Assembly: GCA_903842235.1 (NCBI GenBank)
Contig: CAIMLG010000059.1
Coordinates: forward strand, 14,125-78,124
Reading direction: 5' to 3'
Length of the DNA: 64,000 nucleotides
Origin: an uncultured Verrucomicrobia subdivision 3 bacterium
Lineage (GTDB): Bacteria; Verrucomicrobiota; Verrucomicrobiia; Limisphaerales; UBA11358
Both the position numbers and the translations under genes were made by a program. This document shows positions 5,195-36,134 of the stretch, one piece after another (positions within the stretch are counted from its first letter, which is position 1; each line of letters starts with the position of its first letter). A model generated the notes under the pieces. It saw only the letters and a program-made list of their open reading frames with translations. It was not told the origin of the DNA and did no database searches.

Positions 5195-7540
<2,346 letters not shown>

Positions 7541-13948: not shown

Positions 13949-15367
13949 ATGCACACGGACGAAGCCGTCAATGCCGACATCCTCGGCGAACTGCTGGCGG
14001 GAGGAACATATCACTACGACCCGCAAGACCGCCACGGGCCGGTTTTATATCTGCTCGCCAAACCCATCGCCCAACTCGGCGGGGCCAAAAAACTGGCCGA
14101 CTTGACCGAAACCGAGCTCCGGCTCACGCCGGCGCTCGTCGGCAGCGCCACAATTCTGTTATTTGGCGCGGCGGTGGAACTGTTTGGGTTCCTGCCATGC
14201 CTGATCGCCGCCCTGCTCTTCGTCGTCGGTCCCCTGCCCGTCTATTACAGCCGTTATTTCATCCATGAAACCCTGTTTGTCGCGGCCACCTTCGGGCTGA
14301 TTCTGTCCGGGGCACAGGCGCTCCAAACCCAATCCGGCCGCTGGGCCGCCCTGGCCGGATTCTGCGCGGCCCTGATGCTGGGCTGCAAAGAAACGGCGGT
14401 TCTCCATTTCGGGGCGCTGGCCGCAACCGGGCTCATCGGCGGCCGCTGGCGATGCCGAACCACGGAACCGCCGGCCTCCGCCGGCCCGGAACTCCCGCCG
14501 GTGGAACCCGCGCGCGGCGCGCCGATGGGAAAAATCAGCTTCATCGCGGGCGCGGTCTTTCTGTTGACGACCCTGTTGCTCTTCACCGGGTTCGGCCAAA
14601 ATTGGCAGGGGCTGGCCGACCTGGGGCACGCCCTCCCGCGCTTCCTGGCCCGGGCAGGGGGCGAAGGACACGAAAAGCCGTTCGGCTACTATTTCCCCCT
14701 GCTCGATCCGCTGTTTATTTTTTCCATCGTCGCGCTGGCCGGAATTTACGCGGCCATTACGGACGCGGTGACGGGCGCGCGCAAGGCGGGATTGTTACTG
14801 ACGGTTTATGGGCTGCTGATTTTGCTGATCTATTCGGCCGTTCCCTACAAGACCCCCTGGCTGGCGCTGAATCTCTGGCTGCCGCTGGCCCTGCTCTGCG
14901 GCCTGGGCGCGGGCGCCATCTGGGAACAGATCAAAACCCCGACGGGCCGCTGGATCGCCGGCCTTGCCATCGGGGCCTTGATCGTCGTGGCGGGCCAGCA
15001 GACCAAGACATTGGCGTTTGATGATCCGGCGGCTGAAAAAAACCCGCTGGCCTACGCCCACACCGGCGAAGATCTCGCGCGCCTGCCCCTGCGCCTGACG
15101 CAGTTGGTGAAGGAAAAACAATTAGCCGAACCGACCATTGCCGTCGTGGCGGCTGATCCGTGGCCGCTGCCGTGGTATTTGCGGAAATTTGCCCGGGTGG
15201 GCTACTGGCAGCCGGGCCAGGAACCGGGCGCGGCGGATTTTTTTATCACGTCCACGGACCCGGCCGAAGCGCTGGCCCAACGATTGAAAGATTATCGCCC
15301 GGAATTTTTCGGCGTCCGCCCAAATGTTTTAGTCATCCTCTGGACGCCCCCGCCCGCCCAGCCATGA
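13949..15367 (+). CDS. GT-C / PMT_2-type membrane glycosyltransferase-like protein (TIGR03663-like)
   Basis: RPMHTDEAV...YHYDPQDRHGP motif region and many TM helices. The first ATG is 13949, but in-frame TM-helix codons continue upstream to 13772 without a canonical start (see finding). Confidence 0.75.
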   Translation: MHTDEAVNADILGELLAGGTYHYDPQDRHGPVLYLLAKPIAQLGGAKKLADLTETELRLTPALVGSATILLFGAAVELFGFLPCLIAALLFVVGPLPVYYSRYFIHETLFVAATFGLILSGAQALQTQSGRWAALAGFCAALMLGCKETAVLHFGALAATGLIGGRWRCRTTEPPASAGPELPPVEPARGAPMGKISFIAGAVFLLTTLLLFTGFGQNWQGLADLGHALPRFLARAGGEGHEKPFGYYFPLLDPLFIFSIVALAGIYAAITDAVTGARKAGLLLTVYGLLILLIYSAVPYKTPWLALNLWLPLALLCGLGAGAIWEQIKTPTGRWIAGLAIGALIVVAGQQTKTLAFDDPAAEKNPLAYAHTGEDLARLPLRLTQLVKEKQLAEPTIAVVAADPWPLPWYLRKFARVGYWQPGQEPGAADFFITSTDPAEALAQRLKDYRPEFFGVRPNVLVILWTPPPAQP

Positions 15368-25287: not shown

Positions 25288-26976
25288 TCAGGGCACCAGC
25301 CAAGCGCGATAAAATTGGCGGCCGGAGCTGATCGGCACCGGATTGGTGTAGAGCCAACTACTCGCGGTCAACGTATTCGTGGCCAGCGGCAGCCAGGTCT
25401 GCAAGTCCGCCGAAGTTTGCAGCACGATCGTTTGCCCGGAAACGCCATTCACGCCAAGGCGGAATTGGGTGCTGCTCAATTTGGCCGCCCCTAAAACCGG
25501 CGGCTGAGAACTGGCAGCGACGGTCAGCAGTTCGGGCGTGTAAAGATAGCGCACGTGTTGGCCATCGCTGATGCGGGCATAAACGGCGTAGGTGCCCGGC
25601 GCCATATTCGTCGTGGGCAAGCCCAGGTTGGCATAATAGTTCACCGCCGCCGTGCCCGAAGCGGGGGGCGACAAGGTCAGCACGGCGACGCTGTTGGAAT
25701 TGCAGGGATTGAAGTCCCGGTCGAAATAGATTTGGGCCGTTAAATTGGAGGCGCCGCCGTATTGATAATACAAAGTGGCGCCGACCGAATTGCCCGGCAC
25801 CACCGGATTGGTCCCATTGAGGTTGAACCGGAGGAGGTTCGGCCAGGTGCCGTTGTTGACGGGCAAGGCCGTGCGATTCGGCGTGGAACTGCCGGCGCCC
25901 AAATCCCAATATTGATTGTAGCCGTCGCGAAGAGCCGGGTAGCCGCCCCCTTCGGGCTGGAGCGTATTGGTGCGATTGCCGTGACCGATCAGGCTGTAAA
26001 GAAAGCCCGTGTTCGTCCCGGCAGCCTCATAGGCCGTCCACCAAGCTGAGCGCTCCGTACCGGTGAGGGAAGGATTCGAGGGATCGCCATCACTCGTGGG
26101 AACGGCAAAATCCAGCGTGCCGTGATACCAGAGGTGCACATTCGAATGTTTGGGCGAAACCGAGCTGGTATTGCCGTAACCCCCCGAAAGCGTGTGCAAC
26201 TGCCGATTGTAGGCGCCATTGACCCACTCGCCATCGGGATCCAAAAACACCCCGAGATTCTGCCAATAATTATCGTGGTAGAGCACATTGGCGTAGGTGT
26301 TCGCGGCGGAGGCATCGGTCGGCATGAACAATTCAGAATTCCCATCATTGTTTAAGGGATGCGGATCCAGCGTGGTCAAATGATCCACCCAAACCCCATT
26401 CGTGCCTAGGAGCCGGCTGATTTCATTGATAAGCGAACCGCCGCGACTGTGGCCGATCAGGTGCAGGGGAAACTCCACCAGCGCGTGGCCGCCCAAGTCG
26501 GCAATCGTGTTGGTCTGCAGAAGGAGCGTGCTGGCTGCCGCCGCCACTTTGTAGGTGCTGATATTATACGCGGCGCCCCCGCCGGCCATCTGGCTCCAGT
26601 CCAGTTTGACAATGATTTCCCCGGAATCCGTATTGGTGGGACTGGTTCCGGCGACGCGCGACCACTGGTAAAAAATACTGGTGCCGTCGGTGGTCAGCGT
26701 CAATTTGTAGGTGGTGGAATTGGTGCCCGGAAACCCCGGATAATTGGTGAGGCGACTGGCCAGGCCCGAAATCCAGCCATCGACATTCCCACCGAAGCCG
26801 TGAGTGATAATGGTCACGCCGGCGGCTTTGGCAGCCGGGGAGATAAAAATGCTGAGAACCAGCAGCGCCACCCAACATAACTTTTTTCGGGCCCGCCCAA
26901 GGGAAGCCGGACGGGCGGGGACGGGACAGCGCGGGCGTCCAACCCGAAGGGCTTTTGTTGGCATGGTCGGCATCAT
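25288..26976 (-). CDS. secreted alpha/beta-hydrolase (lipase-like) with C-terminal W...FYR module
   Basis: TM/signal [21 protein letters not shown]; ITHGFGGN; nucleophile elbow LIGHSRGG; ends ...[11 protein letters not shown]...[10 protein letters not shown]. First ATG 26976 (track TTG 27015). Confidence 0.8.
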
Positions 26977-30084: not shown

Positions 30085-30089
30085 ACCCA

Positions 30090-30140
30090 AACCGCAGTTG
30101 TATCCACAGATTTCGCGGATGTCGCAGATTTTGAGCGGTT
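30090..30140. repeat. REP-like hairpin element (AACCGCAG...GCGGTT with internal CAGATTT units)
   Basis: aaccgcagttgtatccacagatttcgcggatgtcgcagattttgagcggtt, directly after the stop at 30084. Confidence 0.6.
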
Positions 30141-30404
30141 TTGTAAAAGAAAGACGCCGCACATGACCAACTGGCAAATCTCGGAAGCCACCCACCGCGG
30201 CTTGGAGCAAAACTAAAAACCATTGCAACGGCAACCCGCATCATAAACGTCGGAGCAGAATACGTCTCTCACTTACGAAGTCACTACGGTTGCTCTGTCA
30301 AGAAGGACTCTGGCGTGACGATTACGCTCATCCCGCTCAAAATCCAATGATGGGCGAGTGACCCGTCCAAGACGGTTTAACTGTTCACCGGAAAGGGGGT
30401 GGAT

Positions 30405-30488
30405 TCTTGCGCCAAGACGGTCAGGGGCTTGTTTTCCGTCTCCAAAGAGGTCTGAATCCACCCAAACGCCAAAACCCAAGCCAGACGG
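30405..30488 (+). repeat. 84-bp direct repeat, copy A
   Basis: tcttgcgccaagacggtcaggggcttgttttccgtctccaaagaggtctgaatccacccaaacgccaaaacccaagccagacgg. It differs from copy B by 4 substitutions and 2 single-base indels. Confidence 0.9.
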
Positions 30489-30491
30489 TCA

Positions 30492-31700
30492 TCATTCGCT
30501 GATAATTTGTGGTCCTATCCGTCTGCGCCAGCAGGTGATGATAATAAACATCAACGCAAGAGGCACCGCTAAGAAATAAATCCAATTGCGGCGCGGCGAA
30601 GGTAGATTGTCGTCAAAACTTTTGTAAACGCGAATCCCGTCATCCTGATTGGCAACGTAAGCGTATCCACCCGAAACCGTGAGCCGTTTGGAGAATCCGC
30701 CGTAATTTGTGCTGGTGTGTCCAACGGAGATGGGATTGGTGGGGCATGAAATATCATAGGCCCACACCCCATCTTGGAAATTTGCGATATATGCATGATG
30801 GCCAGAAACTGCCACCCCGTATGCGGAGCCGTCAATATGAGGATTTTTACCTTTGATTTGTGAATGAGCCTCGGCAAAAGTTTCGCGTGGGGAACTATTG
30901 TTAATGTGGCCGATGCCGGCGGGTTTTGTTGGGTTAGAAACATCGAATATACTGAAGCCGTAAAAATTGTTTGCGACATAGGCATATTTTCCAGCGACGA
31001 CCACCCCCCGCGGATAACCTGTATCTTTTAAATGGCCGACTTTGGTTGGATTGGCTGGATTGGAAATGTCATATATCCGTAGCCCGTCGTAATCATTAGC
31101 CAAATAAACATAGTTTTCGGAGACCGTTGCATTGAGCGCTGTGCCGCCGTCGTTCAAATGGGCAACACGTTTAGGTTTGGCCGGATTGGAAACATCGTAG
31201 ATTCGTAAACCGTCATTGTAGTTGGCTAGAAACGCATATTGCGCTCCCGTTTTACGTTTTCCAAAAAGCTTATCACTTGGAATTTTTGCAGTGCCGGAAA
31301 CCGCAATTCCAAAAGAAGCGGCCATCGCGATTTCAGGTGCGTGCCCAACGCACACAGGTCGGGTTGGATCGGAGACATCGTAAATCCTCATCCCATCATT
31401 ACTGTTGGCGACATAGGCATAATCACCACAATTAGCAACGCCCATCGCGCCGCCTCCATTTTCAGAATTATTGGTGTGTCCGACGGAGACGAGATTGGTC
31501 GGATTTGTAATGTCAAATATGCGGAGCCCATCACTGCCGTTGGCGGCAAAAAGATAATGTCCAGCCACGACCACATCGCAGACATGTTTGGAAGCATCAC
31601 CGTAGAAACCGGCGCATTCCATATTGGTCTGGGCAGGTAGAAGGTGAGGAGCTATCAGCAATCCCAAGCCGAGACTCACTACAAACGAAAATCTTTTCAT
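30492..31700 (-). CDS. LVIVD-repeat beta-propeller protein, signal peptide plus C-terminal TM anchor
   Basis: ATG 31700 gives MKRFSFVVSLGLGLLIAPHLLPAQ. At least 7 repeats of Y(A/V)(Y/F)(V/L)AN..DG(L/M)RI(Y/F)D(I/V)S(N/D)P. C-terminal IYFLAVPLALMFIIITCW followed by RRR. Confidence 0.8.
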   Translation of the reverse strand: MKRFSFVVSLGLGLLIAPHLLPAQTNMECAGFYGDASKHVCDVVVAGHYLFAANGSDGLRIFDITNPTNLVSVGHTNNSENGGGAMGVANCGDYAYVANSNDGMRIYDVSDPTRPVCVGHAPEIAMAASFGIAVSGTAKIPSDKLFGKRKTGAQYAFLANYNDGLRIYDVSNPAKPKRVAHLNDGGTALNATVSENYVYLANDYDGLRIYDISNPANPTKVGHLKDTGYPRGVVVAGKYAYVANNFYGFSIFDVSNPTKPAGIGHINNSSPRETFAEAHSQIKGKNPHIDGSAYGVAVSGHHAYIANFQDGVWAYDISCPTNPISVGHTSTNYGGFSKRLTVSGGYAYVANQDDGIRVYKSFDDNLPSPRRNWIYFLAVPLALMFIIITCWRRRIGPQIISE

Positions 31701-31785
31701 CCGCAATTGATTTTGCTGTGAAACGGGTGCATTGCCACTCAAAAATGAAGTTTTCCAAATCGGCCCTGGCAAATATGATGGGCGA

Positions 31786-32874
31786 GTGAACTTCACTTGC
31801 CGTCAAAAGATATTTCAGGCGTTCCTCATTGGAACCATTTTGTTGAGTGGAGATTTTTTGGCCAAAGCCGATAATCAAATTGTCGCGTGGGGCCAAAATG
31901 CAGGGTTTGGAGAAGTTTCTGTTCCCGCCGGTCTCACGAACATCGTCGCCATTGTGGCGGGATTGCGCCATAACATGGCATTAAAAAATGATGGAACAGT
32001 CACTACGTGGGGGGCTTGTCTTCAAGGGAATGGCATATTTAACGTCGCGACACCAGAAGGTTTGTCAAATGTAACAGCCATCGCTGCCGGTGTATGGCAT
32101 AGCCTCGCCCTGCGCGCAGACGGAACAGTTGCGGCATGGGGCTATAATGGTGACGGCGAAACTGATGTGCCGCCTGACGCGACTAATATCGTCGCCATTG
32201 CTTGCGGAAGTTCTCACAGTCTAGCGCTCAAATCAGACGGGAAAATTTTATGTTGGGGAGCGGAAGGCGCCAGCCACGACAAAATTGTTTCTGTGCCTAG
32301 CGACCTGTCGAACATTGTTAAAATTGCGGCTGGCGGTGGGTATAGCGTAGCCATGAGGTCGAATGGCACGGTGAGAATTTGGGGTGACGCCCCAAATTGG
32401 CTGACGAATGTGCCGTCGGACGCAACCAATATCGTTGAGATAACGGCAGGAGGCCAATACTGTTTGGCGTTAAAATCTGATGGTCGGGCTGTAGGCTGGG
32501 GGGCGGATGTGAATGGAAGCTCGGTTGCACCTCCAAAGGATTTAGCCAACGTCATCGCAATCGGAGCGGGAGAACAACACCGTCTCGCTCTTAAATCTGA
32601 TGGAACCGTGGTCGCTTGGGGGCGCGGTTGGGGCGGAACGACCGTGATGCCCAATGGTCTGACAAATGTAATTGCAATCGCAGTAGGCGGCTATCACAGC
32701 CTAGCTTTGAAAGGCCAAAAAGAAATACTCCACCATGCGAAAGCGTGGCCTGTTTCACCGACGCCTCACAACCGCGTAAGTCTGCTGTTTTGGTTGTCGC
32801 TTGTGGTTTGTCTGTTCATTTTTGGGTGGATGATTTCACGTTTATTCCGGCAAAGGGGAAAGCCAGTTTGTTAA
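31786..32874 (+). CDS. RCC1-repeat protein, signal peptide plus C-terminal TM anchor
   Basis: About 7 repeats of ..AIAAG..HSLALKSDGTV..WG. GTG 31786 gives signal peptide MNFTCRQKIFQAFLIGTILLSGDFLAKA (track TTG 31732 is also possible; there is no in-frame ATG). C-terminal LLFWLSLVVCLFIFGWMI followed by RLFRQRGK. Confidence 0.8.
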   Translation: MNFTCRQKIFQAFLIGTILLSGDFLAKADNQIVAWGQNAGFGEVSVPAGLTNIVAIVAGLRHNMALKNDGTVTTWGACLQGNGIFNVATPEGLSNVTAIAAGVWHSLALRADGTVAAWGYNGDGETDVPPDATNIVAIACGSSHSLALKSDGKILCWGAEGASHDKIVSVPSDLSNIVKIAAGGGYSVAMRSNGTVRIWGDAPNWLTNVPSDATNIVEITAGGQYCLALKSDGRAVGWGADVNGSSVAPPKDLANVIAIGAGEQHRLALKSDGTVVAWGRGWGGTTVMPNGLTNVIAIAVGGYHSLALKGQKEILHHAKAWPVSPTPHNRVSLLFWLSLVVCLFIFGWMISRLFRQRGKPVC

Positions 32875-32882
32875 GACCATTT

Positions 32883-32966
32883 TCTTGCGCCAGACGACCA
32901 GGGGCGTGTTTTCCGTCCCCAAAGAGGTCTGAATCCACCCAAAACGCCAAAACCCAAGCCAGACGG
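32883..32966 (+). repeat. 84-bp direct repeat, copy B
   Basis: tcttgcgccagacgaccaggggcgtgttttccgtccccaaagaggtctgaatccacccaaaacgccaaaacccaagccagacgg; begins 9 nt after the RCC1 stop. Confidence 0.9.
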
Positions 32967-33134
32967 CCTGTAATCCCGTTTCCCTAATTCAGGCCGGTTG
33001 TCCTGGTTTCTGTTCTGGTTTTGATGGTGATTCCATCCATTTTTAGACGCAATCCTCAACCGAGTGGAAAAGGCGGATTCACCTTGAACAATTGATTCCA
33101 TTAATGATTCACACCAGAAAGAAGAAGTTTAAGA

Positions 33135-33211
33135 TGGTGCGCGCGACGGGAGTTGAACCCATAACCTTCGGCTTCGGAGACCGACGCTCTATCCAGTTGA
33201 GCTACGCGCGC
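33135..33211 (-). tRNA. tRNA-Arg (anticodon CCG)
   Basis: 77 nt including encoded CCA, folded by hand. Acceptor GCGCGCG/CGCGCGC. D-arm GCTC-AACTGGATA-GAGC. Anticodon arm TCGGT-CTCCGAA-GCCGA. T-arm ATGGG-TTCAACT-CCCGT. Confidence 0.9.
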
Positions 33212-35287: not shown

Positions 35288-35869
35288 TCATAACGGCAAC
35301 GCGCACCCTTCCCACCCATACATTCCTCCCAGACTTCCAAAAAGAAATCTGTATGAAACCAAGTATCCGGCCAGCGTGGCGAATAGGATGCATAGCGACG
35401 TTCGAATCAACCGCATCCAAACAGCAGCCAACCCCACGGCAAGAACCCAACCAACATCCAGTGCGTAGTCCCATGAAGGATACGGCGGATGTTGCATGTG
35501 GCCACCCATGCAGACGTGATGGTGAAAGCACCATGCCGAACCAATAGCGCCAATGACCCAAAGAAATCCAGCGCCTGATGTTCCTAGCATCGCCCGCAAA
35601 TCGGAGCGGAAACAATCTCTCTCGACCCGCCAGTAAAGCAACGCCACAAGCCCTGCGAGAAAAGGAAAGAAGACAAATGGCACCACCCGCCACGGCAGCC
35701 ACCCAAAAAAATGTTTGTTGAAAACTGGTGAAATCAAACCAACGGCTACTGCCAAAAAGAATGCCTCGCCAACAGACCAATGTCTGCGAAAAAACGCAAT
35801 AACTCTCGGAACGACGGAAAACAATAGCCAGTGCGGAACTTGCGTCCAAAAATATGTTCCTGACTTCAT
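35288..35869 (-). CDS. integral membrane protein, unknown function
   Basis: ATG 35869 (MKSGTYFWTQVPHWLLFSVV...) with about 5 hydrophobic helices. Lower-GC stretch. The track start 36007 runs into a repeat element. Confidence 0.5.
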   Translation of the reverse strand: MKSGTYFWTQVPHWLLFSVVPRVIAFFRRHWSVGEAFFLAVAVGLISPVFNKHFFGWLPWRVVPFVFFPFLAGLVALLYWRVERDCFRSDLRAMLGTSGAGFLWVIGAIGSAWCFHHHVCMGGHMQHPPYPSWDYALDVGWVLAVGLAAVWMRLIRTSLCILFATLAGYLVSYRFLFGSLGGMYGWEGCALPL

Positions 35870-35986
35870 AAGCGTGTAATCTGGCACAACATCAAATCCG
35901 GCCAAATGGTTTGTTCGCCGGTCCGGTTCACATCCGCCACGGTATTCGGGCGGGGAAACCCTGTCCACCGCATTTTCGCCGCGGCT

Positions 35987-36134
35987 GAAAATAGCCCAGC
36001 CATTCATGGCTGGGATTCGTGGCCCGTAATCCTTCCAAGTCCCGTCCGGGACGGCAGCGCTTGCTTTCGTCCCATGCGGGACTCGTCATTTTGTGGTGAC
36101 GCTTTACCCAGTCATGAATGGCTGGGCTATTTTC
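35987..36134. mobile_element. 148-bp MITE-like element with 28-bp terminal inverted repeats
   Basis: Left end gaaaatagcccagccattcatggctggg; right end is its reverse complement with 1 mismatch (27/28). The core holds small palindromes ccgtcc-g-ggacgg and gtccc-atgc-gggac. Confidence 0.6.

Follow-up and report, generated by a model that had tools for sequence, protein, structure and literature searches.

Accessory islands and smaller islets at the 3′ end of tRNA genes are recognized by a foreign base composition and by presence/absence polymorphism among relatives; the classical ones encode an integrase and an excisionase and carry a tRNA-derived attachment (att) repeat. Among exported β-propellers, the LVIVD-repeat cell-surface proteins (PF08309) include large multi-domain archaeal proteins (Adindla et al. 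2004, PMC2447325), and BLIP-II, the beta-lactamase inhibitory protein II of Streptomyces exfoliatus (PDB 1jtd, 3qhy and 9t9p), is a seven-blade propeller which blocks beta-lactamases. We analyzed a stretch of 64,000 nt (hereafter the window, to which all positions refer unless a locus is named) from contig CAIMLG010000059.1 of an uncultured Verrucomicrobia subdivision 3 bacterium, where an islet of low G+C content, located next to a tRNA-Arg(CCG) gene and framed by two direct repeats of 84 bp (DR-L on the left and DR-R on the right), contains two divergent genes, one coding for an LVIVD-repeat protein and the other for a protein with RCC1-type repeats that resembles BLIP-II. The islet shares with the tRNA-associated islands the position of a deviant accessory segment directly 3′ of the tRNA, with a content that varies between relatives; both foreign composition and presence/absence polymorphism were found, and in another locus (L117) the same tRNA bears an integrase/excisionase island of the classical type, whose att repeat comes from the tRNA. 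Unlike those islands, the segment contains neither an integrase nor a tRNA-derived direct repeat, it has two cargo genes only, and its repeats most likely derive from the 3′ end of one of the cargo genes and not from the target. The kind of islet is thus familiar, while the propeller pair is new relative to the literature searched, where no paper linking LVIVD and RCC1 pairs was found. The explanation that we favor as a whole, with a probability of about 0.6, is that of a circulating two-propeller module whose flanking repeats would be the relic of a duplication.

The islet has 49.5% G+C, versus a mean of 60.6% for the window (standard deviation of 3.4% for 1.2-kb windows), and both the minimum of the window (47.4%) and its largest tetranucleotide deviation fall inside it; sliding-window and tetranucleotide analyses therefore bear out the lower-GC islet of 2.4 kb noticed in a preliminary description of this DNA. 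The G+C content at third codon positions (GC3) is 0.467 for the LVIVD gene and 0.488 for the RCC1-type gene, compared with 0.74-0.82 for pta and for the Zn-ribbon, LTXXQ and hemL genes. Upstream of hemL there is a second low-GC open reading frame (ORF), at 35288-36007 on the minus strand, which codes for 239 aa, has a GC3 of 0.52 and gave no NCBIfam match; a 79-nt part of it is 81% identical to the region upstream of hemL in two other loci (L119/L120). Since this ORF is low in G+C and yet conserved in relatives, low G+C alone is no proof of a recent acquisition.

Contigs of Verrucomicrobiota metagenomes bear the pair in six groups of loci (L081, L082-84, L085-87/89, L090, L091 and L092), and the RCC1-type gene is divergently adjacent to the LVIVD gene wherever the upstream region is available, with the sole exception of L093. 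Amino acid identities of the LVIVD and RCC1-type proteins to those of the window decrease in step, being 75/71.5% in L081, 71/67% in L092, 71/64% in L082-84, 65/62% in L090, 62/62% in L085-87/89 and 61/60% in L091, as would be expected of the co-occurring unit that the preliminary description had proposed to look for. The pair has 46-51% G+C in every locus, versus 58-60% in the host flanks; the number of different genomic settings is five or six at the least, and the pair is low in G+C in all of them.

These contexts are diverse. In L081 and L092 the pair lies beside tRNA-Arg(CCG), as in the window, and the right repeat and the spacer are alignable. In L085, L086, L087 and L089 it is located between kdpD and kdpC, where the insert falls within the last ~11 codons of kdpC (L085 8679-8760 and 11450-11500; also L086 and L089): the displaced relic of the kdpC end, ...FNFALDQLPQK*, is found 12 nt before the GTG start of kdpD, and the intact kdpC has a replacement C-terminus, ...LNFALDSLAGK*, the insert being accompanied by a ~35-nt duplication of its target, the 3′ end of kdpC. 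In L082/83 the pair has a DUF6714 gene on one side and a CRISPR-like array on the other; the same contig encodes a TrwC relaxase and an Mrr-type nuclease. The array (L083 3499-3898; L082 11299-11395) starts ~35 nt past the LVIVD stop and comprises at least six units with a period of 70-72 nt and a 36-nt repeat ending in TTGCCGCAGTCGCGGCGACTGCGGC. In L091 the pair stands amid TPR and ankyrin genes, and in L090 it adjoins a response-regulator receiver-like ORF, so named from a reading of the flank translation only, without Pfam. Flanking repeats are present around the pair in the window, in L081 and in the kdp loci, and none were found in L082/83, L090 and L091. The LVIVD gene closest to that of the window (80% nt identity) belongs to L088, where no left-repeat homologue was found; about 110 nt past its LVIVD stop, at 1122-1199, there is a 3′-end fragment of a transfer-messenger RNA (T-arm and acceptor, 18.6 bits, E = 3e-4), which may be an ssrA-type att remnant. 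The ORF next to this tRNA-like fragment was considered as a possible integrase, an assignment unsupported by Pfam.

At the tRNA-Arg(CCG) site, the pair is missing from relatives which retain the neighboring genes. The window and L081 have hemL, DUF4890 and tRNA-Arg in common; L117/118, which can be aligned with L081 at 68% nt identity over hemL, DUF4890, LTXXQ, an extracytoplasmic function (ECF) sigma factor, two small ORFs and tRNA-Arg, lack the pair and contain instead, directly 3′ of the tRNA, a 4.6-kb integrative element (L117 10323-15009) with a tyrosine integrase (Phage_integrase), an HTH_17 gene and three ORFs, terminated by a perfect 26-nt repeat of the tRNA 3′ end (14984-15009). In both L117 and L081, homology to the window is lost at the tRNA 3′ end, and among these loci it breaks off no more than a few bases from that point. 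The sequence 3′ of tRNA-Arg(CCG) is thus a variable integration hot spot, with the propeller pair as one alternative occupant. In L119-122, hemL and DUF4890 are followed by other genes, without the tRNA and without the pair. In L092 (1-90), the tRNA-Arg next to the pair is reduced to its 3′ half, which reaches to the anticodon loop, and unrelated sequence takes the place of the 5′ half; this arrangement fits another element that may have inserted into the tRNA in an att-type manner, or alternatively an assembly artefact, the break being 42 nt from the contig end.

On the other side of the islet, relatives with a Zn-ribbon protein 85-87% identical to that of the window keep the order YkuD-argA-hisC-pta-ZnRib, and in L113-L116 similarity ends exactly at the Zn-ribbon stop (30085), with rpoD or dus/argS next. 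The left junction is thus a lineage-specific breakpoint and not a true empty site, and an empty site on this side was rejected. In the comparison with relatives suggested in the preliminary description, the pair is missing in syntenic relatives on the hemL side, and no true empty site exists on the left. The refuting observation named there, relatives having both genes at this site with native composition, is half borne out: L081 and L092 have the two genes here, with the same foreign composition.

Identity at third codon positions between the window and L081 is 0.53 for LVIVD, 0.51 for RCC1 and 0.43 for hemL (110 codons), and the higher values of the pair are seen despite a lower chance expectation in AT-richer genes; this is only suggestive of a common ancestor that is younger for the alleles of the pair than for the chromosome around them. 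At the protein level, the identity of the pair (71-75%) is similar to that of hemL (76%).

The LVIVD protein is 402 aa long, with a signal peptide, a propeller, a C-terminal transmembrane (TM) helix and a WRRR tail. It matches PF08309 with an E value of 9.5e-51 (169 bits, cut-off 20.2) over seven repeats, and its AlphaFold model (mean confidence, pLDDT, 78) displays a propeller of about eight blades. As in the LVIVD-repeat cell-surface proteins, significant repeats and a predicted β-propeller are found on a protein predicted to be exported; however, the window protein is short, has a single domain and is anchored by a C-terminal TM helix, unlike the large archaeal ones. A sequence search of the PDB retrieved no relative, and the score against the choice-of-anchor B family (TIGR04312), 52 bits, is under the NCBIfam cut-off of 100. 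Its close homologues (54-77% identity) are almost exclusively metagenomic.

The RCC1-type protein (362 aa) starts with GTG and has an N-terminal leader, a C-terminal TM helix and a basic tail. The match to Pfam RCC1_2 has an E value of 2.5e-49 over six repeats, and residues 31-317 can be aligned along the full length of the seven-blade BLIP-II propeller (E = 1.5e-39), so that the likeness covers the whole propeller, together with predicted export; it owes much to the repeated blade consensus. The differences from BLIP-II are the additional C-terminal TM anchor with its basic tail, the phylum, and the LVIVD partner. Alignment and hydropathy confirmed the common layout attributed to both proteins in the preliminary description, in which a hydrophobic leader at the N-terminus is combined with a single C-terminal hydrophobic stretch and a tail of basic residues. 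The same description had noticed that the RCC1-type gene lacks an in-frame ATG start: indeed, the GTG at 31786 is used, and it is invariant across seven orthologous loci.

Between the two genes, a −35-like TTTCCA and a −10-like TATGAT are conserved, and the hexamers end 6-7 nt before the RCC1 GTG (31752-31789); the short spacing from the −10-like hexamer to the GTG suggests a leaderless RCC1 transcript. The loci of the tRNA-Arg type also contain a mini-ORF of three to four codons (ATG..TGA) overlapping the RCC1 GTG.

The direct repeats have the same orientation and are 93% identical, with four substitutions and two single-base indels over 84 nt; DR-L ends 3 nt outside the LVIVD stop codon (30492-30494) and DR-R starts 8 nt past the RCC1 stop (32874). 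The pair of near-identical repeats directly outside both stop codons, as first described, is thus real, and the window contains exactly two occurrences of a 22-nt core, versus zero expected from shuffles. The similarity is in fact longer than 84 nt, since it goes on for ~30-35 nt left of DR-L, into a sequence resembling the 3′ coding end of the RCC1-type gene. No further copy of the repeat exists in the window, exact searches with the core 20-mer gave no match among 185,579 GTDB representative genomes or in IMG/VR, and the only homologues found were those at orthologous positions of L081 and L092.

Several identities of the repeats were examined and rejected. Their fold energy on both strands is no better than that of shuffles (z from −0.6 to +1.2), with no stable hairpin and no palindrome or attC-like structure; no terminator-like site is present within them, and an Rfam scan of the locus retrieved nothing besides the tRNA. 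An RNA element is ruled out by these findings. A coding repeat is likewise ruled out, because indels between the copies and between orthologues disrupt every frame, and so is a derivation from the tRNA, to which the repeats have no similarity. The islet does not correspond to an integron gene cassette: the attC-type palindrome is missing, and the two divergent genes have their own conserved promoter region instead of forming a promoterless single ORF. An att core common to the tRNA-Arg and kdp contexts (TTGCGCCAA..GGTCA-like) was dropped, since matches at ≤5 errors are common and the kdp match has the opposite orientation.

The sequence to the left of DR-L points to another origin. The 15-mer ATGATGGGCGAGTGA at 30347-30361 is identical to the −10/GTG-start region of the RCC1-type gene (31775-31789) and lies 8 nt left of the stretch that resembles the 3′ end of the gene; the nine nucleotides that precede the 15-mer in the real gene, CTGGCAAAT, are also present in the left intergenic region, at 30171-30179. 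The 3′-end-like stretch, 30370-30398, aligns with the last RCC1 codons (32828-32858) with a score of 25, versus a mean of 13.9 and a maximum of 23 for the shuffles (0 of 500), with a deletion of ~20 nt across the stop-codon region. The left flank therefore looks like a second copy of an RCC1-type gene with an internal loss of ~1 kb. In L081, the left flank has in common with the window the proximal part of the relic and the first ~35 nt of the repeat, and the structure should consequently be older than the split of these lineages. The L081 left-repeat homologue is limited to these ~35 nt and lies within a larger low-GC stretch rather than at its edge; this stretch, which also contains the relic, reaches into a gene with 43% G+C. 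Beyond its LVIVD gene, L081 has a further low-GC gene (5900-6589, 43% G+C), in which GloVer-like repeats (FYGTT motifs) were recognized by eye, with no Pfam match.

On these grounds the repeats most likely represent the tails left by an old duplication, partial or tandem, and later homogenised. Indeed, the two tails are 93% identical, as opposed to ~70% between orthologous right repeats (a by-eye estimate from alignments), and thus gene conversion or a later event is needed. A tandem duplication, or a Campbell-type insertion, followed by deletion resembles what is seen here in that the repeats comprise the 3′ end of a gene with the downstream sequence, and a gene-start fragment lies beside the left copy; it differs in that the relic is very short and partly ambiguous, and in that the tails are far more alike than would be expected of an event predating the L081 split.

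In the explanation that we favor, the segment 30489-32966 would be an accessory, horizontally circulating two-gene module of Verrucomicrobiota, with the LVIVD and BLIP-II/RCC1-type genes transcribed divergently from a common 85-nt promoter region. Given the signal peptide and the C-terminal TM helix, both propellers would be exported and tethered to the membrane, with the basic tail predicted to be cytoplasmic, and may be displayed in the periplasm or on the envelope, possibly as protein- or ligand-binding scaffolds. The module, which has no recombinase of its own, is located in the source lineage in the variable region 3′ of tRNA-Arg(CCG). The 84-bp repeats would represent the best-preserved part of a longer duplication, comprising the RCC1 3′ end and the downstream sequence; the left copy would come from a second, internally deleted RCC1-type gene, produced either by a former tandem duplication or by a tandem (Campbell-type) insertion of the module through homologous recombination, and the two tails could have been kept alike by gene conversion or by a recent re-duplication.

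If so, the locus would be a small accessory islet of an ordinary kind at a tRNA hot spot, which opens no long-standing question; it would illustrate that flanking direct repeats need not be integration scars and here hold remnants of a cargo gene. Two conserved membrane-anchored propellers that diverge together, one being BLIP-II-like, would circulate as a pair in uncultured Verrucomicrobiota while retaining their foreign composition, and the pair would be a defined candidate for work on envelope-displayed binding or inhibitor proteins in the phylum.

A number of observations weigh against this explanation. No transfer vehicle was found, no known plasmid or phage encodes a close relative of the LVIVD protein, and a structure search of the PDB with its model retrieved only generic WD40-like or designed propellers. 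As regards the duplication, the relic alignment is short and MAFFT gives an alternative register for it, the relic evidence in L081 is weak outside the core, the match of the 9-mer is possibly due to chance, and the rest of the left intergenic region has no significant similarity to the module. Moreover, the third-position comparison with hemL covers only the 110 codons mentioned, and the pair is found at the tRNA-Arg site in three lineages which differ by ~25% in protein sequence, so that part of its history there was vertical.

The repeats could instead be attL and attR of a small cassette without recombinase, inserted by a recombinase encoded elsewhere and excisable as a circle. They frame the low-GC cargo almost exactly at both stop codons, the site adjoins a tRNA integration hot spot, the pair in the kdp context is similarly framed by a duplication, and the high identity of the two copies fits a fairly recent recombination. 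We regard this possibility as unlikely: the repeat bears no relation to the tRNA, of which no significant copy was detected distal to the pair in the window and in L081, where the scores fall inside the shuffle range, whereas the local integrase island of L117 uses a 26-nt tRNA core; similarity proceeds past DR-L into RCC1-like coding sequence, accompanied by a copy of the RCC1 start, and in L081 the left copy is short and internal to the low-GC region. In addition, the duplications of the two contexts have no convincing common core, the best motif being oppositely oriented, and three contexts have no flanking repeats at all. The absence of a recombinase, which the preliminary description had reported for the cassette, extends from 30085 to 33134 and to the neighboring genes, within ~10 kb. 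As for the dispersed repeats of the repetitive extragenic palindromic (REP) or miniature inverted-repeat transposable element (MITE) type, two copies of which would flank the pair by chance, the intergenic position beside stop codons is shared with many REPs, but the 64 kb contain two copies only, with no hairpin on either strand, no Rfam family and no exact match of the core in the representative genomes or in IMG/VR, and the homologues are confined to orthologous positions; this origin is very improbable. Thus, of the integrated or REP-mediated acquired cassette that had been envisaged beside the tRNA, the acquisition stands, since the pair is compositionally foreign, relocates, is missing in syntenic relatives and occupies a tRNA hot spot, but the repeats are most likely neither integration scars nor REP elements.

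It is equally doubtful that the pair is native and vertically inherited, its low G+C reflecting gene-specific constraints and the repeats being an incidental local duplication unlinked to acquisition. The orthology of the pair, right repeat, spacer and tRNA-Arg in the window, L081 and L092, the protein identity of the pair close to that of hemL, and the conservation in relatives of the low-GC ORF at 35288-36007 all agree with such a history; however, the pair occurs at unrelated loci, including the kdp operon and the neighborhood of a relaxase, and is missing from syntenic relatives, the closest LVIVD relative (L088) is in another context, third-position identity is above that of hemL, and the low G+C persists in all hosts. 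Less likely still, the pair might be a recombinase-free translocatable unit moving through circular intermediates, formed by recombination of the flanking repeats, and coding for two periplasmic propellers that serve as an inhibitor of, or an immunity device against, enzymes or toxins that come in. The circular intermediates would explain why duplications surround the pair at both tRNA-Arg and kdpC, and the proposed function rests on the analogy with BLIP-II, which blocks beta-lactamases.

Table 1. Coordinates of the features of the islet and of its borders in the window.
Feature	Position	Strand	Basis
Left intergenic region, with putative relics of a second RCC1-type gene copy	30085..30404		Short-match and alignment evidence
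Left direct repeat (DR-L)	30405..30488	+	Pairwise alignment; direct score 138 vs shuffle maximum 24
LVIVD-repeat β-propeller gene	30492..31700	−	Pfam PF08309, family alignment, hydropathy, AlphaFold model
Divergent promoter region, 85 nt	31701..31785		Alignable across all 7 loci
RCC1_2-repeat, BLIP-II-like seven-blade propeller gene	31786..32874	+	Pfam, PDB match, hydropathy, conserved GTG
Right direct repeat (DR-R)	32883..32966	+	Orthologous copies in L081 and L092
Spacer from DR-R to tRNA	32967..33134		Alignable with L081 and L092
tRNA-Arg(CCG)	33135..33211	−	ARAGORN and Rfam; 3′ end toward the islet

The flanks consist of housekeeping genes on both sides. To the left there are an N-acetylglutamate synthase-like gene, hisC, pta and a CT398-type Zn-ribbon gene, while the right flank comprises tRNA-Arg, a DUF4890/LTXXQ (Spy/CpxP-like) protein, hemL, purA and uppS. 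The tRNA, located by ARAGORN and Rfam at 169 nt from DR-R, is where the preliminary description had placed it (about 170 nt to the right). The nearest relatives of hemL belong to Verrucomicrobiota/Pedosphaera-like metagenome-assembled genomes, with 72-77% identity, and the hemL relatives in GTDB have no synteny with the window. ARAGORN also called a 98-nt ‘tRNA-???’ with a two-base anticodon at 25796-25893 on the plus strand, inside a long minus-strand ORF; the call is below the threshold of the Rfam tRNA model and is probably a false positive.

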